From contig CAXXGO010000003.1 of NCBI GenBank assembly GCA_963666835.2, forward strand, positions 576,001-640,000: 64,000 nt of DNA, written 5' to 3'. The position numbers and the translations under genes were made by a program. The notes beneath the pieces are model-generated. The model had not been told where the DNA came from and did no database searches. It saw nothing but the letters and a program-made list of their open reading frames with translations. The DNA comes from Phycisphaerae bacterium (GTDB lineage: Bacteria; Planctomycetota; Phycisphaerae; UBA1845). This document shows, piece by piece, positions 2,802 to 17,363 of the stretch (positions are counted from its first letter, which is position 1; each line of letters opens with the position of its first letter).

Positions 2802-5800
2802 CTACGAGTTGGGGCCGGTGAAGTTGGTCTGCAGGATTGCATAATCGGCAACGTCGACGTCGCAATCGTCGTCAAGATCGCCAACGGTGCTACCATCGGG
2901 ATTAATCTCAGCCCCGTTCGGCGTCAGGTCACAGACATCATCGTCATTGGTCACCCCGTCGCCGTCGATATCGACATCGCAAGCATCACCGGTTCCGTCA
3001 CCGTCGAAGTCTTCCTGGTCCGGATTGGGTTCGCTCGGGCAATTGTCAGAATCATCAACGACTCCATCACCATCAGAATCGTTCAGTATCGTCAGATCGA
3101 TATCGTCGACCACCCCGTCGCAATTGAAGTCGCCATCCGCCCAACCGCAACTGTCATCGCTGTTGCATCCGGCGGAGCCGGCCGCCATAGTCGCCAGAAC
3201 GATGACCTCATCATCAGTATTCCGAACACCATCCAGATTGGCGTCACCGTACTCGGTTCCCAGGATGACCTCTACTAGCTCCCGGACGTCCTCGGTGTCG
3301 ACCGCCATGTCGCCATTCATATCACAGCTCAGGTCCATCATCACGGCCTCAGCCAGATTCGACCAATCTCCCAGATTGCGGCAAACATAGTCAATATCGC
3401 GCGAATCGACCAAGCCGTCCCAACCCAACGGTTGAGCTCCGGCCACAGGACCAGTCTTCGTATCGCCGGCAACATCGCCGCGGAAATCTCCGGGAGCGTA
3501 GGCCTTGCCGGTCTTCAGAAGGCCGCCGATGTCAGTCGGAGCGTTGAAAGTCGGGTCGGCGGGCGGGGCCGCCGGCGGAACGAGTTGAGGTCCCCGATCA
3601 GCCCAAGGATAGGGCAGGCCGACGTCCGCCAGCGCCAGGTCAATAGCAACCGCTCCATCCTTCCGGTTGAGTTGTCCGTCGTTCATGGCCAGCCCATCGG
3701 CAAAGTAGCGCAGATCCTCCTTCGTCAGGTTCCCATCGCCGTCAAAGTCGCCGATCACTTCGGGAATCGCGTTATCCGCGTCCATATCGCCGATATCGCC
3801 GGATCCGGTCGCAACACCGGTGCGTTGCCAGCTTCGCGGCGCGAAGAAAGCCTTGACTAACTCGGTAGCATCATCCAGATCTCGAACGGCATCACCGTTG
3901 AAGTCGCCTTGGATCCGGTTCCGTTCCGCCAACTCCAATCCGGAGCTCACCGTGTCATAGCCGGCACCATCCCAGTAGTAGTAGCTGCCTGTACCGGAGC
4001 CGTCGGAATAGACCCCGCGACGCGACAATAGCGAGTTACGTTTGGGCACGAGCCCGGCTTCGTTGTTGGAGCCGTATGGATCCGTGTCGCCGCCCCAACC
4101 CATGCCGTTGTAGCGGCGTGCGAACTCTTGAAGGTCTGCGTTCGGCAGCACCCGTTCCGGATACTCGGTCGGATTCAGTACGTTGTGGACACAGTCAATA
4201 CCAGCGGGCAAAAAGAACGTGGTAGCCAAGTCCTGCCCCGGCATATTCGCAGCAGACTTGCAGTAGTCGGCGGGATACATGTGGCAATCGCTGTCGTGAA
4301 CGCACTCTTGAATCACACAGTGGTTCTCATTACCTGGACAATCCCCGTCCGCGACGCAAACGACTGCACAATCTCCAGTCAGTCCGGCGGCGACACAGTC
4401 GTCGTCGCCGTCGCATGCTATCGTTGGATCCTCCACGCACACCGCGGTCTCGCACACTCGGCTAGTGTTGCAGATATCCTCCTCCACGCCGGTGGTGAAG
4501 TCATCGATAGCATCGAAGATGTTGTTCAAGTACTCCGCAACCTGCTGATTGTCCAAAGGTGGATTGCTTGCTGCTACAGCAGTGTCATACTTATCCCGAT
4601 GACTCCAAACGCAGAGATCATTCGACGTCGCGCAATCCTGGTCATCGAAACACATCTCGGGGTTTGCGCTACCCAGGGTCGACTCGCACCATCCGTGTCG
4701 ATTCCGGTTCGGATCACCTCGCACACTGAAGGAGCCGCTCCCGGCAATCTGATAACCGAGGCACGGATCGCAATTGTCCAGAATCGCGTCAATCGTCGGA
4801 CGAACGTAGTTGTCCGGCGTATTGCAGGCGGTTTCCCCTGTGTCCTTCCACACGCCGAGAATCTCGTACTTCCCGCCCCGGGCGTCCTTAGCCGCGCGGC
4901 TCGAGCCGGCCACCCCGGTATATCCGACAGCCAGGCGTCGATTCTGCACGGCGTTTTCCATAATACTCGATCCACCGCAGTTCGATGCTTGATGATCGGG
5001 ACCGAGATTAGTCAGACTGGTGATCTTGACTTCGTCGCCGATGTTATCCCCACGACCCCAACTCGTGTCGATCCCGAGAGTACTCATCGCTGCGTTACGC
5101 GTACCGGAGCCAACGTCACGAGTGGCGGCCACGAGGTTCTCACCGTTGGGCAAGCGCCCGCTGGTGAAGAGATACTGGGCCTCGCTGAACTTGACGCTGT
5201 CCCGGCCCGTACCACGATTCGAGATAATGGCTACCGGCACCCACGCCGCCACAAAGTCGAAGATCGTATCTTCGTTGGGGTCGGGGTTCGCCGGATTGTC
5301 AGACCGCCACGTATTCAGCGACTTGCTCACGTCGCGCAGAACACAGGTCTCGCCTTCCGGGCAGTCGCCGTCCTCCCCGCACGGATCGCCGCTCGTATCG
5401 CACCAACCGAAAACACAAATCTCGACTGGCTCACAGGTTTGGCCGTGATTGCAGGCGTAGTCGCCGCAGCACGCCCGACCGGTGAAACTCGTTCCGTCGT
5501 GGCACTCCTTCAGAGGGCAGTGGTCTTCGGCGGAGTAGCAGGGCATCGGTACGCAGGGCCCGTTAAGCCCCAAGGCCGTGCAATCCGAGGTAGACTCGCA
5601 AGATGTCCGATGGTCATCTCCGCACCAATTGCTGCTGCTGCAAGCCCCTAGCTCTCTTGTTAGACTCGCAAGTTGGCTGATGTTTCCACTGGACGACGGG
5701 ACCGGGCACGTTCCATACCCATCCCCGGCCGGTGGAGTATCCCAGGCAGCGGCACCTTCCGGTCCACGCACGCCCCACGCCCCCGGCACGTCCATGAATG

Positions 5801-6404
5801 CGAATTCGATTTCGCACGGTACGAAGGGCGTCCCACTGCAATGGGTCCCAACGGACTCCGGGATACCCTCGGAACAATACTCGTAGTGTTGAATAAGGCC
5901 GCGTTCCGTCGGCGGCAATACCGGGATTGCTCCGATTGTCTGATTCTCGACGAACTCGTTGAGCCCGTTAACCGAACCGACACTGCGATACTGGAACATC
6001 CACCACCACGGTTGGGTCTGCGGATACATTCCCACCAGTTGGTCCGTGAAAGGAAAAGTCGGCAGTTGTCCTGCAAAACCATCGCCATCGACGTCGATCC
6101 AGTCGTTTGTGGAAGCGGGCCGACTGAAGAAATCGGCAAACAGGCTTGCTCCCGACCCACTGACCTGACCCCCATCGGTCAAGAACCCGGGTTCGTTGAT
6201 CGGGCCTTCCGTGCAGCAGCCGTTATCAAAAACGCACACCTCGCCATCAGTGCAATCCGCATCCTCCCAACAGGGCAGCAACGTCCCCGAGCCGGCGGAG
6301 GAAGCGTCATCACAGTAGCCCACGCAGTCCGCCACAGTCCTCGTTGACCAAGATAACATCATCCCGCACACAGCAAGCAACCACGCCATTCTCGCTCGTT
6401 TCAT
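2802..6404 (-). CDS. Large secreted PstS-like phosphate-binding-fold protein with Cys-rich inserts, dockerin-like and thrombospondin type-3 repeats
   Basis: Signal peptide; colinear PstS motifs [42 protein letters not shown]; about 9 CxxDxDC-type repeats; GDxNxDG dockerin-like loops; [18 protein letters not shown]3 repeats. Confidence 0.75.
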
Positions 6405-6477: not shown

Positions 6478-7542
6478 TCAATCGTCCATCATATTCGGGT
6501 CCATATTCAGAACGTCACTGGCGCCGGTCAGGGAGTAGTATCGGTCACCCCACAAGCGTTTGCGGACGGACTCCAACGGCATCAAGGGCTCAACGTGTCC
6601 GTCGCAAAACAAGAAGTTCGCGGTCCCGCCGAATCGCTCTCGAAGTCGCTTATCCCCGCCGGGATGATGGCGTCCGACAGCGTTCATCTGCGATACCCCC
6701 GAACTGTGATCGAGGATGTTGACTTTGTTCTTGACATCCTTGCTCTCGAGCAGTCCATAAGTCACTTGGTCATGCTGGAGTCCGTACAAGAAGCCCGACG
6801 CCTGGGGAGCGGCCTCGTATTCGTTGAAGCCGGATCCCACATGGTAGAACGGGTTCACCGGGCGATGCGATTTAACGAGGACCCCCTCGCCGGTTTGAAT
6901 ACCTAGAGCCCGCCAGTTATTGAGGAACTCTGTGGCAACGATGGTCTTTCCCGCCGACCGTATCCGGTTCTCGCGAACAAACTGATTCACGCGTTGGCCA
7001 CCGGACAGTTCCGGCGTGAACTTGTTGCGAGGAATGATCGCCGCGTTGGCGGTGTAGGCCATTCGCGAAGCCTGTTTATCCTGTAGCTCATTCGGCTTGT
7101 CGTCCGAGTTCTGATCTACCTGTTCACCCATTTCCCAATCACTCTCGACCAATCCGGGGTTTGTCCGCGGAGCTCCTCCATGCTCCATCTCCGGGCACTG
7201 AAAGGCCTTTGTCGCTGCCTCACCGGCTTCATACAGGAAGTATGACCAGTGGATGTAGCCGTGTGGATGATTGGCCGTCTGGCTGGCGAGGGACCAGTTG
7301 CCTTCTTCGTCGTCCGGATACAGATAAGCGGTCGGGTACGTCGAGTTCGATACATACAAGTAGTTTGCCAGCGCCTTTCCGATGTGATTAAGATTAGTCG
7401 CGCAAACCACAGCGCGGGTGTGCTTGCGCGCATGACTCAAACTGGGGAGCAGAATCGCCATGAGCATGGCAATGATCGAGATCACCACCAGTAGCTCGAT
7501 GATCGTGAACGCTCCACAAGAAGGCCCTCGATACTTAGTCAT
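6478..7542 (-). CDS. Prepilin-type N-terminal cleavage/methylation domain protein with C-terminal H-X9-DG-type motif (DUF1559-like)
   Basis: AFTIIELLVVISIIAMLMAILLPSL..AR...C..NL..IG; FQCP; RH...ANFLFCDGHVE; AAGGAG RBS. Confidence 0.9.
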   Translation of the reverse strand: MTKYRGPSCGAFTIIELLVVISIIAMLMAILLPSLSHARKHTRAVVCATNLNHIGKALANYLYVSNSTYPTAYLYPDDEEGNWSLASQTANHPHGYIHWSYFLYEAGEAATKAFQCPEMEHGGAPRTNPGLVESDWEMGEQVDQNSDDKPNELQDKQASRMAYTANAAIIPRNKFTPELSGGQRVNQFVRENRIRSAGKTIVATEFLNNWRALGIQTGEGVLVKSHRPVNPFYHVGSGFNEYEAAPQASGFLYGLQHDQVTYGLLESKDVKNKVNILDHSSGVSQMNAVGRHHPGGDKRLRERFGGTANFLFCDGHVEPLMPLESVRKRLWGDRYYSLTGASDVLNMDPNMMDD

Positions 7543-7632: not shown

Positions 7633-7687
7633 ATTCTCGGAATGCTCAGTTAAGGAAGGATGAGCCGTTTGTTAAACTTCGGTCAAG
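7633..7687 (-). promoter_or_regulatory. Pho-box-like array (4 direct repeats, 11-bp period) plus a -10-like hexamer
   Basis: Minus strand reads CTTGACCGAAG TTTAACAAACG GCTCATCCTTC CTTAAC-N10-GAGAAT; cores start at + positions 7682, 7671, 7660 and 7649. Confidence 0.65.
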
Positions 7688-7808: not shown

Positions 7809-8279
7809 CTAAGTAACCGGCGCCAACGCCGGCGGGATCATCCACGATACCGCCCAACCCTCCGCATCAACGCGCGAAAGACAGGCAACCGTACCGGCGG
7901 GAAACCGAAAGAGAGAAGCCGCGCCCTCCCCCACAATAAGATACGCAGCCAGGCAGCCAATAAACGGCAGGTGACTGACGACCATCACATCTTCGGTCCA
8001 CTCAGTAATCGTAGCAGCAAAGGCCTCCACGGAGTCGTCGGGCGCCAGTCCCTCAACGGCGGACACGCTTCGACCGGCGGCGACTACCTCGGCCAGCAAT
8101 TCGGCCGTTTCCTGCGCTCGCGTTTTGCCGCTGTGGACTATCCGGTCAACACGGACCCCGGCCCGCCCCAGCCACGCGGCAACCCGTTGGACTTCGGCGC
8201 GCCCGCGGGCACTCAACGGCCGCTCGGGATCCACCTCTTTCGCCACAGCATCACCGTGTCGCACCAGGTAGATTCGCAT
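7809..8279 (-). CDS. sixA: Phosphohistidine phosphatase SixA
   Basis: LVRHGDA, RPLS, RAQETA and VSHLP motifs. Confidence 0.92.
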   Translation of the reverse strand: MRIYLVRHGDAVAKEVDPERPLSARGRAEVQRVAAWLGRAGVRVDRIVHSGKTRAQETAELLAEVVAAGRSVSAVEGLAPDDSVEAFAATITEWTEDVMVVSHLPFIGCLAAYLIVGEGAASLFRFPAGTVACLSRVDAEGWAVSWMIPPALAPVT

Positions 8280-8354: not shown

Positions 8355-9137
8355 TCAGGAGTCTGCGGCAGCCTGCTGCGTCACTCGGTCGATTCCTTCG
8401 AACAGGGCCGATCCGATCCGCACAAGCGTTGCTCCGTACTCGATTCCGTATTCGAAATCGCCGCTCATTCCCAGCGACAGCTCTCTGAAGCGCGGGCCGC
8501 AAATACGCTCGGCAACGAACTCGTCGAATAGCTCCCGCACCCGTTCAAAGGTGTGCCGAGTCACGGTCTCGTCATCGGTCAAAGGCCCCATAGCCATGAG
8601 GCCACGAATGTCGATGTTCTTCAGTGACCGGAGCTGCTCGGCCAGATGGGTAGCCGCAGCCACGGCGATGCCGTGCTTGGCCGGTTCGCCCGATGCGTTG
8701 ACCTCCAGAAGAACCGGAACGACCCGCTTTAGTTTCCCCGCCCGAGCGTCAATCTCTTCTGCAAGCCGCAGGCTGTCCAAGGAGTGGATCATGTCGATCC
8801 AGGGCAGAACCGTCTTGACCTTATTGCGTTGGAGATGGCCCACCATGTGCCAGTGCGGCCGGGGCTTTGCGTCCAGCGAAGGGTTCCGCGCGCGCCGCGC
8901 CAACCACTCGTTAACCATACCGGCGCGCTTGGCCAGCTCCTGGACGCGGCTCTCCCCGAGATGGGGCACCCCCATCTCGACCATCGTCCGCACCACATCG
9001 ATACTGACGTACTTCGTGATCGCCACGAGCGTAACGCTCTCTCTGTCACGACCCGCCCGGCAACACGCGTCTGCGATCCGCTGTTCGACCCGCTTGAGAT
9101 TCTCGGCGAGCTTCCGTCTTACAGCTACCTGTTCCAT
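8355..9137 (-). CDS. yggS: PLP homeostasis protein, YggS family
   Basis: LVAITK, WHMVGHLQRNK, GLMAM, LSLGMSGDFE, GATLVRIGSALF. Confidence 0.95.
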   Translation of the reverse strand: MEQVAVRRKLAENLKRVEQRIADACCRAGRDRESVTLVAITKYVSIDVVRTMVEMGVPHLGESRVQELAKRAGMVNEWLARRARNPSLDAKPRPHWHMVGHLQRNKVKTVLPWIDMIHSLDSLRLAEEIDARAGKLKRVVPVLLEVNASGEPAKHGIAVAAATHLAEQLRSLKNIDIRGLMAMGPLTDDETVTRHTFERVRELFDEFVAERICGPRFRELSLGMSGDFEYGIEYGATLVRIGSALFEGIDRVTQQAAADS

Positions 9138-9944: not shown

Positions 9945-11981
9945 TCACGGGGACTCCAGCGGGGTAAACCGCAATACCAGTCGCGCCGAGAAGTCCCTCT
10001 GGCCGGTTGCATGCACCTCGTAGGATGAGAACTCGAGCATCCGGCCGAGCGAAACCAGCTCGCGAACGGCTTCCACCGGCATCATTGCCGGAGCCTGCCT
10101 ATCGGACAACAGAAGCGGGCGTTGTGTCATCATAACATCCAACATCGAGTCCTCGCGTAACACGCGGAGCACGGGGTTATGAGTGTCATGCGCTCCGGCC
10201 AGCATTTCGCTGAGATCGCTGGCCGGCGACGCCAATCCCAGCAACACGCCATTCACCCCCAGGATTAGGTCGTCGGGCTCCAACACGCCTTCAGCCGGCG
10301 CCCCGTGCTGGACCTCGATGATGCCGACAACTCCAGGATCGAGTTCGGGGTCTATCTCGACGCCGATCTGGCGTCTCAGATCCCGCGCCGCCCCGCTGGG
10401 CGTCCGCCACCAAGTGGGATCGAGCAAAGAGGGCCTATCCTTCTCGACTGCCTCCAGCCAGGAACCAAGCGCTGCCGCCGCAGGACCGGGTTGAACAACC
10501 GACACCGTCTTGCGGTTGGCGCGGTAGAAGTTCAACTCCTGCATCTCCGGGACGGTCGCCAGTCTTGGGATCAACCCGCAGTGTGCGTCGACGATCCGGA
10601 CAATGTGTTCCCGGCTAAGGGCCAATACAAACCACCCCCCCCGAGTCGCCCACGCGGGCTCTACATTCGCCAGAAGGCGCATTATTGGGAACCGTGATCG
10701 CTCGGCATATTGTTTCAGAGAGACGTACGTGATGGGCGTACCAAGATGGGCACTCTGGAGGATCTTGGGCGCGTCGATCGGTTCGACCGGATCGACTACT
10801 CTCAGCAGCTCGATCATCCTGTCGGCAATGCGGCGGACCTCGCGCATGGTGGCGGCACTATCCTGACATTCGACCATTAACGCGACTTGCGGGGTAGCGT
10901 CCTCGGCGGTGAGATCCTGATCCCAAGCGGTCACCACGTGTGGGCCAAGCAAGTCCAAGAAGCCGGGGTCACTCGTCGCTTTCTCATCTGAAACGCCGAG
11001 CAAGGCCAGGTATCTTCCCAATACCCCCGAAGACGGATTACCGATCGCCTCGCGAAAAACGCGCCCAACATCGACGGATGTTGCCGAGGCGAAGAGGGTC
11101 GTCCGAGGAAGCCGCAGCAGGCGACCATAGGCCGGTTGGGTGATCGCGTTACCGGCGCGCGGCACTGTTCGACGGCCCCGGATAGAGAAATCTATGTGCC
11201 CGTCATGTTCGTACATCCCGACGGCCACGCCATCCAACTCCGGTATCAGCCATCTGGGTCCCGAGCCAGCTTCCACCGGTCGGCGGCGCGCAGCATAAGC
11301 GGTCGCCAAGGGCCTCCCAGGAAGATAAGCCGCCAAATCGTGATAGCTCTGAGCTTGTTCGAGAGCGTCCCCTCCCTGCCCGACCATAAGGCGTCCGGTC
11401 TGACTTAGCAGGGACCGGGGACCGCTTCGGCGAGCCATAGCCACGATTCCGTCACGAACGACAACGCGCAGCCCGTCGTTCGTGCGGAACGACCGCACAA
11501 CAGATGTCTGCCCCTCACCCCGTCGCTGGTCCTTCGGGAACCACCGATCGATCACATCCCCGCTACGAACACGGGCCAGCCACACCGCCCCCCCTAGTTG
11601 CGACCAGGAGTCGGCAACCACACCCACCTCGCTCCCCAGAAGCTCATCAATGTCGACCGAGCTACCTCGACCGAGGAATCTGGCGACGGCGGCTCGCAGG
11701 CTTGGCGGCTGGTCTGATCCTTCGCCACCCGCCGCAAGTGGAAGCAATCGGCCTGCGTGGGTTTGCAGCAAAGCGGAATCGACCTCTGCCGGTCTGTGGA
11801 AATCAACGAAGAGCTTGGCCGAAGCGGGAACGAATCTGACAAACGGGGTGAGCCCGGAGGATCGTGGGTCGTCTTGCTGGGCGAACGTGACCGAAGCGAC
11901 TACCGCCGCAACTGTGATTATCGTCACCTGGAAGACGCGCGCCGTGCGAGCTTCTCCCACGCTGCCCTGCGAGAGTATCAT
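9945..11981 (-). CDS. Exported protein with C-terminal PDZ domain
   Basis: N-terminal hydrophobic signal; 'IIEVQHGAPAEGVLEPDDLILGVNG...LRVLRE' PDZ signature; no protease motif seen. Confidence 0.6.
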   Translation of the reverse strand: MILSQGSVGEARTARVFQVTIITVAAVVASVTFAQQDDPRSSGLTPFVRFVPASAKLFVDFHRPAEVDSALLQTHAGRLLPLAAGGEGSDQPPSLRAAVARFLGRGSSVDIDELLGSEVGVVADSWSQLGGAVWLARVRSGDVIDRWFPKDQRRGEGQTSVVRSFRTNDGLRVVVRDGIVAMARRSGPRSLLSQTGRLMVGQGGDALEQAQSYHDLAAYLPGRPLATAYAARRRPVEAGSGPRWLIPELDGVAVGMYEHDGHIDFSIRGRRTVPRAGNAITQPAYGRLLRLPRTTLFASATSVDVGRVFREAIGNPSSGVLGRYLALLGVSDEKATSDPGFLDLLGPHVVTAWDQDLTAEDATPQVALMVECQDSAATMREVRRIADRMIELLRVVDPVEPIDAPKILQSAHLGTPITYVSLKQYAERSRFPIMRLLANVEPAWATRGGWFVLALSREHIVRIVDAHCGLIPRLATVPEMQELNFYRANRKTVSVVQPGPAAAALGSWLEAVEKDRPSLLDPTWWRTPSGAARDLRRQIGVEIDPELDPGVVGIIEVQHGAPAEGVLEPDDLILGVNGVLLGLASPASDLSEMLAGAHDTHNPVLRVLREDSMLDVMMTQRPLLLSDRQAPAMMPVEAVRELVSLGRMLEFSSYEVHATGQRDFSARLVLRFTPLESP

Positions 11982-12089
11982 TGATGAGTTGACCCTGTTA
12001 ACCCCGTCCGTTATTCGACGCCCGCGCGTTACCGCAAGACCGACTTGCGCAGATGTCGAGCCTCTGGAGCTCGCAAACCCGGGCCGCTA

Positions 12090-12755
12090 CTACTCGGAGC
12101 CGCTGTCTGGCACAGCACCGGCATGGGGTGAGGAAGCCTCCGAAACATCATCGGCGGGTGAATCGCCTTCCTGAACACCCGAGGAAACCTCGGCTTGTTC
12201 CAGAACGTCAATCAAGTCGAGTATCCGCCCATCCAGCGCCCGTTGCAGCGATTCTCCGCTCCGGCGTTTCGTATCCAGGCGATCCAAGAACTGTCGACCC
12301 CACTGGTCCAATTCCTGTGTGGTCGGGTCGTCCACTTCGGGGACGGGATTGCCGACTGCGTCTTCGATCAGCGGCATTCCGCCGTCCAAGCTTGACCAAG
12401 TAGCCTCCTGGCCTGCACGCACTCCGACCTGGCGGTCAAAGCTTCCTAAGAAGGCCATCACCACTACCGCGGCCGCGGCGAGTGGCCCGGCGATGTATAG
12501 TCCTCGCCGAACCCGGTGAGTCCAGCGCGAGCGACGTTCGTCCATGCACGCCAGCAGTCGATCGCTGAATCCATCATTTAGTAGTACGGGGTCTTCATCC
12601 GATTCGAGGATGTGCCCGGTCACCTCGAGTAGCGCCAGAGCCCGCCGGCAATCCGGACAACGCAGCCGATGAGCCCCAAGCTCCGTCTCCATCGCCGGCG
12701 ACAGTTCGCCGTCGAGATACGCGTCAAACAACCGACGTGCTTCCTCGCAACGCAT
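12090..12755 (-). CDS. Zinc-binding (zf-HC2/ZAS) transmembrane anti-sigma factor
   Basis: MRCEE..YLDGEL..HRLRCPDC (HxxxCxxC) followed by one TM segment; directly downstream of an ECF sigma. Confidence 0.88.
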   Translation of the reverse strand: MRCEEARRLFDAYLDGELSPAMETELGAHRLRCPDCRRALALLEVTGHILESDEDPVLLNDGFSDRLLACMDERRSRWTHRVRRGLYIAGPLAAAAVVVMAFLGSFDRQVGVRAGQEATWSSLDGGMPLIEDAVGNPVPEVDDPTTQELDQWGRQFLDRLDTKRRSGESLQRALDGRILDLIDVLEQAEVSSGVQEGDSPADDVSEASSPHAGAVPDSGSE

Positions 12756-12815
12756 GGTCCGATCTCGTCAAAGTACCTCAAGCGAACGATCCGTTCCGTT
12801 CGCGTCCATTCCCTT

Positions 12816-13433
12816 CTACCCCACTTGCCCCGAAAGATTGCGAAGATGATGCAATTCCTGATCGCTTAGGGATTCCAATAACTCCCGCAGACGCTTACGG
12901 GCCCGGTGAAGGTGGCTTTTGACCGTTGCCACGGGCAACTCCAGAACCCGCGCGATCTCCTGACAGCTAAACTCCTGCCGATAAAAGAGCAACACGGTGG
13001 CCCGCTGAACGGGGGTAAGGCGGTCAACCGCGTGCCAGACCGTGTCTTTGAGCCGCCCGGCGTCCTCGGATTCCAACGATGCCGCGGAATTGTCATTATT
13101 CGCCAGGGGCAGTGTCAGCACATCGACATCGGTCCCCTGGGTCCGCTTGCTGCGCATGCGGTTAAGGCAGACGCGGTATCCGATCGTGAACAGCCACGTG
13201 CTGAACCGATACTCCACGGAGAAGGTATCGAGCGAGGCAAACGCCTTCAGGAAGGCGTCCTGGCAGATCTCCTCGGCATCATGGTGGTTACGGATCATCC
13301 GCCAGATGAAAGCGAAGAGGCGATCCTTGTGATTGTCGACCAACTCGCGCACGGCCCCCCTATCGCCGCTACGCGCGCGACCGATGAGCTGCCGCTCATA
13401 CTCCCGGCTAACCGTCCCGGTACTTTGAGTCAC
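12816..13433 (-). CDS. ECF-family RNA polymerase sigma factor
   Basis: DAEEICQDAFLKAF, FSTWLF, EIARVLELPVATVKSHLHRAR. Confidence 0.93.
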   Translation of the reverse strand: MTQSTGTVSREYERQLIGRARSGDRGAVRELVDNHKDRLFAFIWRMIRNHHDAEEICQDAFLKAFASLDTFSVEYRFSTWLFTIGYRVCLNRMRSKRTQGTDVDVLTLPLANNDNSAASLESEDAGRLKDTVWHAVDRLTPVQRATVLLFYRQEFSCQEIARVLELPVATVKSHLHRARKRLRELLESLSDQELHHLRNLSGQVG

Positions 13434-13456
13434 TGGTGCACCTACCTCACACAGCC

Positions 13457-13487
13457 ATTATAACCCTCGAATCGTCCCAACGTTGCA
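13457..13487 (-). promoter_or_regulatory. Candidate promoter of the ECF sigma gene
   Basis: Minus strand TGCAAC-N16-GGTTA (ECF-like), overlapping a TATAAT. Confidence 0.4.
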
Positions 13488-13577
13488 GTTGAGCCCCTCT
13501 ACTATAGAATCGGCCGCGAACGGCCGGATGCAAGGGCAGGATCGTATTTTCTGCAAACTATTTACAGAACAGTGTTT

Positions 13578-14050
13578 ATGAGCAAGAGTCAGGCGTCCGA
13601 TAACTCGATTTGCCGCAATCGCAAGGCCGGGTACCGCTTCGAGATACTCGAAAAGTACGAATGCGGCGTCGTCCTGCTCGGCACGGAGGTCAAGAGCTTG
13701 CGCGAGCGTAACGCCTCCCTGGACGAGGCTTTTGCACGCCTGGATCGCGACGAACTCTGGCTGCTGGGGTTTCATATCGCCCCCTACAGCTTCGGGCACA
13801 CGACCAATCACGAGCCCATGCGCCGCCGGAAGCTGCTTCTGCATTCCGGGAGATTCGCAAGATTAAGCCGAAAGTGGAGCAACGCGGGCTGACCCTGGTG
13901 CCACTGCGAGCGTACTTCAACGAACGCGGGATCGCCAAAATCACGATCGCGGTCGCCCGTGGTAAGAAGCTGGTCGACAAGCGGCAGGATCACAAGGCTC
14001 GGGACCACGGCCGGGAGATGGAAAGAGCGATGCGCCGATCACGGCGATAG
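13578..14050 (+). pseudogene. smpB: SsrA-binding protein SmpB, split by a 1-nt frameshift near 13846 (probably a sequencing error)
   Basis: NRKA, GTEVKSLR, RKLLLH in the first frame; [24 protein letters not shown]...GKKLVDKR...TAG continues in the -1 frame. Confidence 0.9.
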
Positions 14051-14112
14051 CCCCACCGTCAAGACTGCGATCAGGGATCACCATCTGCCTGGATCCGGAC
14101 TCCTCCAGCCCT

Positions 14113-15564
14113 TCAGCTTTCAGAGGACGAATCTTCGGAGCGATGCGGAACCAGCATACTGAAGACCGGGTTGACTGCGAGTGACACCAGCATGCCTATC
14201 GTACCCGCTTCCGGGGAAGAGGATCCTCGGGCAAACAGCACAATGCAGGTACCCAAGCCCAGGACGGACGACGACACCGCTCCGAAGCGATTCACCCGTC
14301 GGCTAAGCAGACCCCAGACGAACGGGCCAAGGAACACCGCGCCGATTGCCCCCCAGGATATGCTAAGTATGGCTACAATGGTCTCCAACCGCCTGGCCGC
14401 CAGAACAACTGACGCTAACACGAATAGCAAGCTTGCACCGCGCATTAATAGAGTCAGCCGTGCGTCACTGGCGCTCGGATTGATGAAACCGGCGTAAACG
14501 TCCTTCACAACCGCAGCACTCGAGATCAAGACCAGAGCGGCCAGGGTCGACATCGAGGCCGACAGCACCAACAATAGAATGAGTACCGATAGCGATTCAG
14601 GCACGACATTGGCCAGCAGCTCCGGCATGAGCCTGTCGAAGACCGGCTTGCCCTCAGCAAAGGCGTTCGGAGCAATCTCGGGCGACAGAAACAACCGCGT
14701 AGTTGCCCCGGTGAAATAGGCCGTTCCACCGATCAGAACGGCCAACCCCGTCGAGGCGACCATGCCGATCCTGATCGACCGGTCGTCTTTGATCGCATAG
14801 AATTTCTGGAGAAGCTGCGGCATTCCAAAGGGAGCCACACTAGTCAGAAAGACCAGACAGAAAAGCGGCCACACACCCGGCGGTCCTACCCATCCCGCCA
14901 GCTTGGGGTTGATCTCCGAGAGACCTCGGCTGATACCGGCTACGCCATTACCCTTGCCTATCGTAAACCACAGCAGGATCGAGACTCCTAAGACCATAAT
15001 CATGCCGAAGCACACATCGATCAACGCCATCGATTTATAACCGCCGAGCACCAGGTACATCGCGGTGAACGTGCCCATTATGATGACTGCTGTGACGAAC
15101 TCTATGTCAAAATGGGATTGGAAAAGATAGGAGAGCCCCATGAATACGGCTGAGGAGTACGGCACGAAGAATACGAACACGCAGATTGCCGCAAACAGCT
15201 TCAAAAACCGGCTATTGTAGCGCTTTTCGAAGAACTCAGGCATGGTATGCGCCCCGAGGGCGATGGATGTCTCCTTGATCCGCTTGCCGAGCAGCCACCA
15301 TACGCCAAGAACGCCAACGAACGCGTTACACGCGGCGATCCACAACCCGGAATACCCAAACGCCCAGCCGATCTTGCCGGCGAAGCCGATAAAGAGCACC
15401 GCGGAGAAATACGCGGCCGCGTACGTGAACGCGGTCATCCAAGGCCCGATCCCGCGCCCCCCGAGGAAGAAATCGGAGAACGAGCGGGTCTTTCTCATCC
15501 CCCACACCCCCACGAACACGATCATCAGAGCGTAGGCGGCAAGGACGATCCCCTTCAGCAACAT
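14113..15564 (-). CDS. Sodium:solute symporter (SSS; PutP/PanF-like)
   Basis: FFLGGRGIGPW, TMPEFFEKRY, PQLLQKFY, SASMST; many TM helices; GAAGGGAG RBS. Confidence 0.9.
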   Translation of the reverse strand: MLLKGIVLAAYALMIVFVGVWGMRKTRSFSDFFLGGRGIGPWMTAFTYAAAYFSAVLFIGFAGKIGWAFGYSGLWIAACNAFVGVLGVWWLLGKRIKETSIALGAHTMPEFFEKRYNSRFLKLFAAICVFVFFVPYSSAVFMGLSYLFQSHFDIEFVTAVIIMGTFTAMYLVLGGYKSMALIDVCFGMIMVLGVSILLWFTIGKGNGVAGISRGLSEINPKLAGWVGPPGVWPLFCLVFLTSVAPFGMPQLLQKFYAIKDDRSIRIGMVASTGLAVLIGGTAYFTGATTRLFLSPEIAPNAFAEGKPVFDRLMPELLANVVPESLSVLILLLVLSASMSTLAALVLISSAAVVKDVYAGFINPSASDARLTLLMRGASLLFVLASVVLAARRLETIVAILSISWGAIGAVFLGPFVWGLLSRRVNRFGAVSSSVLGLGTCIVLFARGSSSPEAGTIGMLVSLAVNPVFSMLVPHRSEDSSSES

Positions 15565-15624
15565 CTGGCTACTCCCTTCGCGAGCCGCATGCACCGGCCG
15601 CGCAGCCTCGTAAGTAACTAAGGT

Positions 15625-17058
15625 CTAGAAGCTGATACTAAGTTCGGCCCGCAGGAAGGCGGCCGGGTCATTACGCTCGTTGGTGTAATAATCGCCCGGG
15701 AAGAACAGCTCCGCTATCAGGTGACCGCTGACGTTGTCGGTGAACTTGTAGGCCAGCTTCCCGGCCAGCAGTTGCCCACGGAAGCAGCCGCTGCCGCTGA
15801 ATCCATCCTGCCCGGCGAACGTGTTCTGGTCGGCAAACAACAAGTGGTAGTCGGAACGTAGCTCCATCTTCTCCGTTGGATGCCCCGTCCACCCCATGGT
15901 AAGCCGGTGGAGATTCGTCATATCTCCCAGCCGCGTCTCCCCGGCATAGGTGAAGATGTACAGCTCGCTAAAGCGAGGCCAGCGTCCCCACAGCGTGTCG
16001 AACGCCTCCACGACATCCGTTCCGGGATCGTCGCCGGACAGATACTCATAATCGAGCCGAAAGACGCTGTTCCACTTGTCGGCCGTCGCGTAGGTCAGCC
16101 TGGCGAGAGCCCCGAACGCGCACATCCGCTCACCGTTCTTCCTTCCGAATTGCCCGGCGAGGTTACCCCGCAGTTTCCAGCGATCGTTGAAACGATGCTC
16201 GGCTCGAGCCCCTATGGTGTAGATCTCGGCATCGTCTCCGTCGGGCAGTTCCGCGTTGGTTTTCTTGTAGATGAAGTACCCGTCGAGCTGCGTCTGCGGC
16301 AACGTCGTATTAGTCACCCACACGATCGCTCCGGTCTCGTCCTGTTCGATCAACGGGCGATCGCGATTGGAGATCGGATAGAACCAGTTCTCCCCGTGGG
16401 CATCTTGCTCCAAGTAGATTAGGTCCAACCGGGTCTCGATCTCCGTGAACTCGGCAGTGAGCCGGACCGCATCGAAGTACACCGACGACGACCCATCCAA
16501 CGGGGTGCCGTCCATCACCAGCCACCGGTCCCCGAGCATCAGTTCCTGCCGCCCGGCCTGCAGAGTGAACGGAGAACCGCCGATACTCTTCAACTTCACG
16601 TTGAGCCAGTCAATCATGAGCGAAGTCGGAGCCCAATTGTCCCGGCTGAGGGGGCGATCATAGTGTTTGCCCTCCCAGGCCAGGCGGAGGTTGAACTCGA
16701 CGTCTTCAACCGGCGTAACGGTTGTCCAGATGCGGACTCGCTGGCGTTGCCAGTGCCACTCGTGCCCGGCGGCCTTGCGGTCCAGGGTGAACACGTTGCC
16801 CATATAGGTTTCGCGTAGCCGGATGTCCATGCCCCACTCCAACCAGGGCACGGGGTTCGTGATCTTGTCCAACAGGCTCGGGGGGGCGTCGGGAGCCTCA
16901 TCCTCGGCGAACACCGCGTCAGAGACTGCCAGGGCGAGGCTTGTGCTCTCACCTCCCGGGGGCTCGGCACCCCGGGCATGACCCGACGCGAACGGGCCGA
17001 GAGACCACAGAGTCAATCCGACTATCACGGGCGAACTGAAGAGCCTCACTTTGTTCAT
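15625..17058 (-). CDS. Outer-membrane beta-barrel, alginate-export (AlgE-like) family
   Basis: Signal peptide, GRQEL..GD, YLSGDDP, amphipathic strands, C-terminal F; AAGGAG RBS. Confidence 0.75.
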   Translation of the reverse strand: MNKVRLFSSPVIVGLTLWSLGPFASGHARGAEPPGGESTSLALAVSDAVFAEDEAPDAPPSLLDKITNPVPWLEWGMDIRLRETYMGNVFTLDRKAAGHEWHWQRQRVRIWTTVTPVEDVEFNLRLAWEGKHYDRPLSRDNWAPTSLMIDWLNVKLKSIGGSPFTLQAGRQELMLGDRWLVMDGTPLDGSSSVYFDAVRLTAEFTEIETRLDLIYLEQDAHGENWFYPISNRDRPLIEQDETGAIVWVTNTTLPQTQLDGYFIYKKTNAELPDGDDAEIYTIGARAEHRFNDRWKLRGNLAGQFGRKNGERMCAFGALARLTYATADKWNSVFRLDYEYLSGDDPGTDVVEAFDTLWGRWPRFSELYIFTYAGETRLGDMTNLHRLTMGWTGHPTEKMELRSDYHLLFADQNTFAGQDGFSGSGCFRGQLLAGKLAYKFTDNVSGHLIAELFFPGDYYTNERNDPAAFLRAELSISF

Positions 17059-17258
17059 CCGGCAAGTTCTCCTTATAAGGCTCCGGGCGACCATCAAAGG
17101 ACCGTCGCGGTTGGAACCGCCGTACTCCCCGGGCCGGCCGCCCCGGGCGCAATCGACCCCGCACCGTACCCCGAGGCTGGGGAATCCTATCATGAACCCG
17201 TGGTTTTCCGCCAGCTTACCCGCTGATAGCCCATCATGTAGCGTTTTGTGTGCTCGGA

Positions 17259-17287
17259 TTGCCCGCGTTGTCGTCGGACAGTAAAAT
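17259..17287 (+). promoter_or_regulatory. Sigma70-type promoter upstream of the S8 peptidase
   Basis: TTGCCC-N17-TAAAAT. Confidence 0.55.
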
Positions 17288-17363
17288 CTGCGCCCACGTC
17301 GACGGCCAAGCCGTCCTAACCAAGCTAACAACGAGTTCCTACGCTATACGAGGAGACCCTTAG

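Follow-up and report, generated by a model that had tools for sequence, protein, structure and literature searches.

The window analysed here is a 64,000-nucleotide stretch of the genome of a Phycisphaerae bacterium (assembly GCA_963666835.2, contig CAXXGO010000003.1, positions 576,001 to 640,000; positions below are counted from its first letter). An open reading frame (ORF) on its minus strand (2802–6404) encodes a protein of 1200 amino acids (aa) with 59 cysteines, for which we predict the clamshell fold of PstS and which is referred to as the clamp protein in the following. A prepilin-type gene lies directly upstream and is preceded by a Pho-box-like promoter repeat. Clamp and pilin together likely represent an undescribed, starvation-induced scavenger of phosphate at the cell surface. 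The features of the locus, all on the minus strand, are as follows.

7644–7687: four direct repeats, 11-bp period, YTTAAC-like and Pho-box-like, located some 100 bp ahead of the prepilin gene's start (promoter reading and motif model)
6478–7542: partner gene, 354-aa prepilin-type protein of a specific ortholog group, 74 bp upstream of the clamp gene (Pfam, profiles, locus comparison)
2802–6404: gene of the predicted PstS-fold protein, 1200 aa, single-copy (ORF, genome search, family alignment)
6330–6404: likely Sec signal peptide, residues 1–25, a basic start followed by a hydrophobic stretch (read from the sequence, no predictor)
6195–6329: variable, Cys-rich N-terminal segment, residues 26–70, 7 Cys (family alignment, residue counts)
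4170–6173: predicted PstS-type domain, a type 2 periplasmic-binding-protein (PBP2) clamshell with inserts, residues about 78–745 (model, VIA-align, Foldseek)
6141–6149: first ligand loop A86-S87-L88, corresponding to T8/L9 of DING, with Ser as in X. citri PhoX (family alignment, literature)
5973–5975: S144, invariant, S32 of DING (family alignment, literature)
5790–5792: D205, invariant, D62 of DING, likely the selectivity aspartate (family alignment, literature)
5100–5120: R429 and S433-G434-T435, invariant second-lobe ligands (profile searches, family alignment)
5325–5651: Cys-rich insert 1, residues 252–360, 17 Cys, varying by lineage (alignment occupancy, residue counts)
4605–4694: Cys-rich insert 2, residues 571–600, 4 Cys (same basis)
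4257–4484: Cys-rich insert 3, residues 641–716, 12 Cys (same basis)
3081–4169: conserved C-terminal module with Asp-rich EF-hand/dockerin-like loops (family alignment, dockerin profile matches, homologue model)
2805–3080: thrombospondin type 3 (TSP3) repeats and final Asp-rich loop (Pfam, PDB sequence search)

A preliminary description of this DNA had proposed that a PstS-type phosphate site is hidden in the large protein at about 4900–6170, with equivalents of the ligands T10, S38, D56, R135 and S139-G-T141. Six motifs are indeed found there, once each and in the expected order (residues 83–89, 138–147, 199–207, 388–396, 427–436 and 478–497; window positions 6158 down to 4914), and profiles, conservation and two structure models agree with the proposal. 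The domain itself extends further than described, to residue about 745–753 (window position about 4170). When 120 family rows are aligned, S144, D205, R429, S433, G434 and T435 are invariant (120/120). Position 87 is Thr in 104 rows, Ser in 15 and a gap in one, and position 88 is Leu in 119. The first row is the cluster representative of the window protein (P0001), which differs from the genome’s own protein at 0.25% of positions and at none within the motifs. Across 292 proteins the ligand pattern is kept with one or two exceptions per column besides gaps, and a distant subfamily with about 26% identity retains the same ligand residues. A chance match of the motifs was rejected because of this invariance and the predicted fold. 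Within the model of residues 72–790 the ligand residues lie at helix starts or strand ends, as they do in PstS. The phosphate site of DING is reported to consist of T8, L9, S32, D62, R141, S145, G146 and T147 (PMC7922408), and motif and profile alignment against this list recovered all eight positions (T/S, L/F, S, D, R, S, G, T). A serine in the first ligand position is already known from PhoX of X. citri (PMC5439949). Ala-Thr-Leu combined with Asp is described as a mark of the more selective phosphate binders (PMC5381212), and D205 is likely the selectivity aspartate of the PstS/DING type.

The fold was assessed with profiles and with predicted structures. A core-only profile built from 33 homologues and searched against 177,635 PDB sequences gave four hits at E ≤ 10, all of them PstS-type (E 0.011–0.079), and hhalign against 11 neighbouring PstS proteins reached a probability of 75% and an E value of 2.6e-5, confined to the second lobe. 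The AlphaFold model of residues 72–790 (predicted local distance difference test, pLDDT, 86.6; predicted template modelling score, pTM, 0.85) was compared with known structures. Foldseek returned ten matches at E ≤ 0.001, all phosphate-binding proteins, and the best VIA-align match was 4lat, PstS1 of S. pneumoniae (Z 22.0, root-mean-square deviation (rmsd) 3.3, alignment over 252 of 260 residues). PstS, PhoX or DING proteins filled the first 36 VIA-align rows (Z 12.7–22.0), and the first unrelated row followed at Z 12.6. For the whole insert-poor homologue P0060 (pLDDT 90.8, pTM 0.90), a search of 48,161 chains placed PstS-type proteins in the top 11 rows (best Z 19.3, rmsd 3.0, 253/260 aligned), and Foldseek agreed with this result. 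Sulfate-binding proteins (Z 9.4–10.1) and ModA (Z 9.2) scored lower, and since the Asp and Arg ligands are kept as well, a sulfate or molybdate binder was rejected. No phosphatase fold was found among the structure rows listed for either model, with the loops barely tested by these searches. Both predicted models show the two-lobe PBP2 clamshell. We regard a PstS-type fold as practically certain and binding of phosphate by the clamp as very probable.

Neither the window protein nor a homologue from a pst-linked locus (L050) reached the cut-offs of the PstS families TIGR00975/TIGR02136 and PF12849. PF12849 gave 15.7 bits against a cut-off of 27, and PBP_like_2 was found in 4 of 33 members only below its cut-off (best E 0.013). 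Large insertions had been suggested as the probable reason why annotation misses the domain. This explanation does not hold, because insert-poor homologues also fall below the Pfam cut-off; the Cys inserts are therefore not the cause of the missed annotation. The designation “Cys-rich giant protein” needs correction, as richness in Cys is not an intrinsic property of the protein. Of the 42 domain cysteines, 33 are concentrated in the three inserts (215 aa together), and these inserts and the N-terminal Cys segment have low occupancy among the relatives (about 0.1–0.5 for the inserts in the 120 rows). Seven of 292 homologues contain no Cys at all, and a natural, compact Cys-free homologue exists (L044). 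As the inserts are dispensable, they were rejected as the defining trait of the family. Cys-rich inserts of a similar kind occur in IPTL-CTERM proteins of this genome.

Searches with the whole protein against Pfam, NCBIfam and, by phmmer, the PDB gave matches confined to the TSP3/dockerin tail: Pfam detected TSP3 repeats at the C-terminus only, and phmmer only thrombospondins and weak dockerins. A full-length family profile mainly matched dockerins and calmodulins in the PDB; its dockerin matches reached E 1e-6, versus 0.17 for the window protein alone. Only one, marginal, cohesin match was found in the genome. In the model of the whole homologue (pTM 0.90) the C-terminal module, which the structure searches barely probed, is predicted to pack against the clamp. 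In some homologues a PEP-CTERM-like ending, present in 28 of 292, replaces the TSP3/Asp-rich end.

A family search with residues 75–640 matched 358 proteins among 7,999 scored candidates. The named members are Phycisphaerae or Planctomycetes proteins annotated as hypothetical or dockerin-domain proteins. Among 201 genomes sampled from the class, 51 contain the core; among 301 sampled across the phylum, 10 do, all ten from the class of the window, and this phylum-wide search did not find it outside Phycisphaerae. A representative search yielded only close members among its best 150 hits, and a search of sequencing runs listed none that held RNA. The core comprises 420–450 aa, compared with 260 aligned residues in short PstS, and thus carries about 190 residues of conserved additions; numerous invariant residues fall outside the phosphate site. 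An ESM Atlas search with the core retrieved one PBP_like_2 cluster at 0.95, with that family assigned to 40% of its members. Unnamed clusters of 550–670 aa were also seen at 0.95–0.96, most commonly from Acidobacteriota, and the family is possibly wider than Phycisphaerae. ORFs on the opposite strand of the clamp gene (4128–5651 and others) were taken as shadows of the real gene, and no test indicated otherwise.

Neither the conservation of a prepilin partner nor the regulation of the pair had been noticed in the preliminary description. The partner passes the N_methyl family (PF07963; 22.9 bits, cut-off 21.2) and remains below the cut-off of DUF1559 (PF07596; 17.2 versus 23.3 bits). Relatives of the clamp are encoded by 263 stretches of the genome collection, of which the best 79 loci were kept for comparison. 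One prepilin ortholog group was present in 73 of these 79, always on the same strand and, except in L070, upstream. Four of the six pilin-less loci have less than 300 bp of upstream sequence, and two (L031 and L076) lack the ortholog. In the distant subfamily, recovered from weak class-sample matches, this pilin lies upstream in 10 of 10 loci, and four of the five clamp sequences inspected carry a PEP-CTERM end where complete. All 51 class-sample genomes with the core also contain the pilin at E ≤ 1e-30; in five further genomes the pilin was matched but the core was not. The profile of the ortholog group scores the partner of this genome at 532 bits and the other paralogs at most at 99.5. Pilin and clamp distances are correlated (r 0.68, 52 pairs), which is expected from shared descent and hence is not evidence of binding; we consider the odds of physical contact between the two proteins to be even. 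A profile of the pilin head matched no PDB sequence at E ≤ 10.

Some loci deviate from the usual layout. L008 contains two partner-type pilins, the pilin of L070 is located downstream, L031 has a different, divergent pilin, and no pilin was detected in L076. Genome G081 has two pilin-plus-clamp loci (L093:6960-8129 and L094:7862-10141), one copy of which is interrupted by a TGA stop. Strong partner-pilin matches without a core match were seen in G006 and G088, and G079 has three pilin copies; these pilins possibly serve very divergent clamps or other cargos.

Genes for phosphate uptake and its regulation adjoin a minority of the clamp loci. Within 8 kb, pstS was found in 11/79 loci, a phoB and phoR-like pair in 9/79, and either of them in 13/79. 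Five loci (L005, L027, L050, L051 and L060) share the order phoB-phoR-pilin-clamp gene-(porin)-pstS-pstC-pstA-pstB, followed by phoU where the locus reaches that far; L005, the nearest row to the window protein, carries the full operon. NCBIfam models, applied to all of L050 and to selected genes of other loci, identified PstS, PstC, PstA, PstB and PhoU of L050 above their cut-offs. The porins belong to the OprB, Porin_5 or alginate-export types. In a tree of 75 rows built with FastTree, from which five short loci were omitted, nine changes are needed to account for the 11 pho-linked rows. These are thus scattered, which fits an old operon position that was often lost or, alternatively, repeated arrival. 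The genome of the window has its own phoB-phoR-oprB porin-pstSCAB-phoU operon 400 kb away (G000:C3:171000-181000; L081:7066-16961, minus strand). Its pstS was identified by a hidden Markov model, the OprB porin by family match, and phoB, phoR, pstC, pstA, pstB and phoU from their translations. No pilin pair lies between phoR and the porin of this operon, a slot that is filled in L005. A separate, ordinary pstS occupies the transporter slot in the 11 loci and in this genome.

The promoter upstream of the pilin provides a further link to phosphate. A Pho box is described as two or more 11-nt direct repeats with a species-specific consensus (PMC4415409). A motif sampler run eight times on 70 promoters converged each time on one TTAAC-like direct repeat. 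A three-unit model scored 10.0, versus 5.2 ± 0.2 in 20 Markov shuffles, and a period of 11 was best (9.7 versus 5.7–6.2 for others). A second version of the model was trained on 56 promoters, to the exclusion of the window and of pho-linked or suspect loci. When the 6 Mb genome was scanned with it, the porin-pst promoter ranked first (C3:178022) and the clamp/pilin promoter fifth; the two promoters thus share 11-nt direct repeats. Two of the 19 prepilin genes of this genome score above 12 and the rest at most 5.2, with 0.7% of 3,000 random 330-nt windows reaching a score of 7. Scans for sigma-70 promoters and terminators gave nothing above shuffles. We consider the clamp/pilin pair quite likely to be under Pho regulation.

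Further arrays were observed elsewhere in the genome. The third-ranked one (G000:C1:1847930-1856300, L082) precedes a second prepilin gene, a 758-aa dockerin-ended protein and two repeat proteins whose ends are IPTL-CTERM-like; this is possibly a second Pho-controlled module of pilin plus cargo. At G000:C3:190000-209000 (L083), several arrays lie around the genes of an OmpR-type regulator, a lamin-tail IPTL-CTERM protein of 1028 aa and a P-loop protein. This region also contains an ISL3 transposase, another prepilin with a secreted protein, and a 1014-aa ORF, which may encode an endonuclease/phosphatase-fold protein. A weaker array at G000:C3:555113-559000 (L084) lies ahead of a prepilin gene that is followed by a tetratricopeptide-repeat membrane protein.

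Other genes in the window flank the pair. Upstream on the same strand lie a histidine phosphatase gene of SixA-like size (7809–8279) and an alanine-racemase-N-domain gene (8355–9137), neither of them recurrent in related loci. A run at 9945–17331, again on the minus strand, encodes an alginate-export-type porin, a sodium:solute symporter, an extracytoplasmic function (ECF) sigma factor, a zinc-finger anti-sigma factor and a PDZ protein. Downstream of the clamp gene, a convergent ORF on the plus strand (2178–2645) presumably encodes a D-aminoacyl-tRNA deacylase.

We propose, with a little more confidence than doubt, that clamp and prepilin form a phosphate-starvation module of Phycisphaerae: an exported phosphate-capture protein of the Pho regulon with a dedicated pilin. 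What the data show directly is that the motifs are present and invariant, that the models agree with PstS, that the two genes are paired, that pst/pho genes are close by in a minority of genomes and that a promoter repeat is shared; from this we infer the binding, location and partnership of the clamp protein. The phosphate role draws on independent context, namely the pst/pho neighbours and the Pho-box-like repeat. PhoB would bind the 11-bp repeats and switch on the pair, and the large protein, with its likely Sec signal peptide, would be exported by Sec. Its Asp-rich C-terminal module may bind Ca2+ and, together with PEP-CTERM where present, hold the protein at the envelope. The pilin would be processed by the prepilin peptidase of the genome, enter a type II/type IV fibre built by machinery encoded elsewhere, and export or display this one cargo. 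The predicted PstS-type clamp would then capture phosphate at the cell surface, outside the ordinary Pst transporter, and release it near the porin, from where it could pass to the normal PstS-PstCAB. The genome encodes five secretins and a prepilin peptidase and has 12 T2SSE-family and four exosortase matches. A position of the clamp protein outside the outer membrane appears moderately probable.

Several observations weigh against this proposal. Sequence-level support for the PstS fold is weak by itself. No pst or pho gene is near in 66/79 loci, many of which are truncated, nor in this window, and the response regulators at neighbouring positions match PhoB best but below its cut-off (225–247 versus 296 bits). 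Only four of ten distant-subfamily promoters reach a score of 7. The sites ranked 2–4 and 6–7 precede genes without a clear phosphate role, two of them near another OmpR-type regulator. Behind such high-ranking sites lie lamin-tail/IPTL-CTERM proteins, a second prepilin pair, an OmpR-type regulator and a transposase region, so that the repeat might be read by another regulator. Among the genes that recur near the pair, neither a secretin nor an assembly ATPase was seen. The window protein ends without PEP-CTERM, and this motif alone would in any case not establish a position outside.

Some of these points would also suit a second, membrane-tethered phosphate-binding protein in the periplasm that buffers phosphate or signals to PhoR/PhoU, with the pilin as an inner-membrane tether or a relay via its N-terminal helix instead of a fibre component. 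The pair directly follows phoB-phoR in several loci, no secretion genes recur beside it, and X. citri is reported to have a second Pho-regulon binding protein, PhoX (PMC5439949). We nevertheless consider this explanation unlikely, as Ca-binding-type repeats, Cys-rich inserts and PEP-CTERM ends appear typical of exposed proteins and an ordinary PstS is already present. The roughly 190 conserved extra residues, and the many invariant ones outside the phosphate site, would also fit a clamp that acts on bound phosphorus, either as a LapA-like phosphatase or as a binder of phosphoesters or of calcium/iron phosphate mineral whose surface is shaped by the large conserved loops and the Ca-binding module. 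LapA of P. aeruginosa is reportedly called an alkaline phosphatase. The eight-residue site, in contrast, is a standard tight site for inorganic phosphate (Pi), the structure rows offer no phosphatase, and PfluDING is described as binding one phosphate without phosphatase activity (PMC7922408), which makes this idea slightly less probable still.

The strict pairing with a pilin could also point to a starvation-induced adhesin or pilus-tip protein in which phosphate binding merely switches the conformation. PstS and DING are described on outer-surface appendages of P. aeruginosa (PMC3949141), and the variable Cys-rich inserts may resemble adhesin decoration. Yet these inserts are dispensable and the position inside a porin-pstSCAB operon fits uptake, so that we rate an adhesin as improbable. 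A broader version of the proposed phosphate-capture module is tentative and rather doubtful: planctomycete prepilin-type (DUF1559-like) proteins might be dedicated one-to-one adaptors, each exporting or displaying a single nutrient-binding cargo on a type II/type IV fibre that they share; the present pair would be the phosphate version, a pilus-borne clamp reaching into biofilm or mineral surfaces and delivering to porin and Pst.

If the phosphate-capture module is correct, several hundred proteins labelled hypothetical or dockerin-domain gain a proposed ligand and regulon, and Phycisphaerae a candidate Pho box. Of the numerous prepilin-type proteins of planctomycetes that lack an explanation, one would obtain a constant partner together with a stimulus and an output that can be measured, so that the role of these pilins becomes testable in the cultured carrier Poriferisphaera sp. 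WC338 (L079). We found no description of the clamp family or the clamp-pilin pair in the literature, with subscription papers and supplements outside the scope of the search. In PMC6461901, Phycisphaerae dockerins and Pho genes are discussed separately, in the parts consulted, and a verrucomicrobium is reported to have 67 pseudopilin homologs whose role is described as unresolved (PMC13274419).

Among known systems, PstS of PstSCAB provides the closest structures to the window model (4lat, 4ecf, 4exl, 4gd5 and 4q8r). The clamp shares with it the predicted two-lobe PBP2 fold (252/260), all eight ligand positions and a Pho-type context. It differs in its low identity (13–19%), its scores below all Pfam and NCBIfam PstS cut-offs, its conserved and variable insertions and its 360-aa C-terminal module, and it adjoins an ordinary pstS rather than replacing it. 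The clamp family also keeps the Asp, whereas the nearest short PstS (C. perfringens) has Ser there. PhoX of X. citri, a second Pho-regulon binding protein, likewise has Ser at the first ligand position and keeps the Asp (Z 16.0), but is of ordinary size, and the portion of its description considered reports neither a pilin partner nor a tail (PMC5439949).

The DING/Psp proteins of Pseudomonas are described as responding to Pi limitation and as leaving the cell through the Hxc type II system (PMC2225411). Like the clamp, they are extra phosphate-binding proteins with a T/S-L plus Asp ligand pattern and protruding loops (PMC7922408). By analogy, induction under Pi limitation, a link to type II secretion and a role as extracellular scavenger feeding Pst, as proposed for DING/Psp, may apply to the clamp module as well. 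The window protein is not a DING member: neither it nor the family consensus has the DINGGG N-terminus, DING structures are further from the clamp model (Z 12.6–13.1), one large-headed prepilin takes the place of a whole Hxc cluster, and the clamp family has Ca-binding and PEP-CTERM tails. ZepA of Anabaena is comparable as an exoprotein with signal peptide and PEP-CTERM that scavenges a nutrient under a starvation regulator, although its nutrient is zinc, its fold is different and no pilin partner is given for it in the portion considered (PMC10957091). The partner, finally, resembles other planctomycete prepilin-type/DUF1559 proteins in having a type IV N-methylation motif and a head whose ending is DUF1559-like, but differs from them as a distinct ortholog group tied to one gene and to a Pho-box-like promoter.

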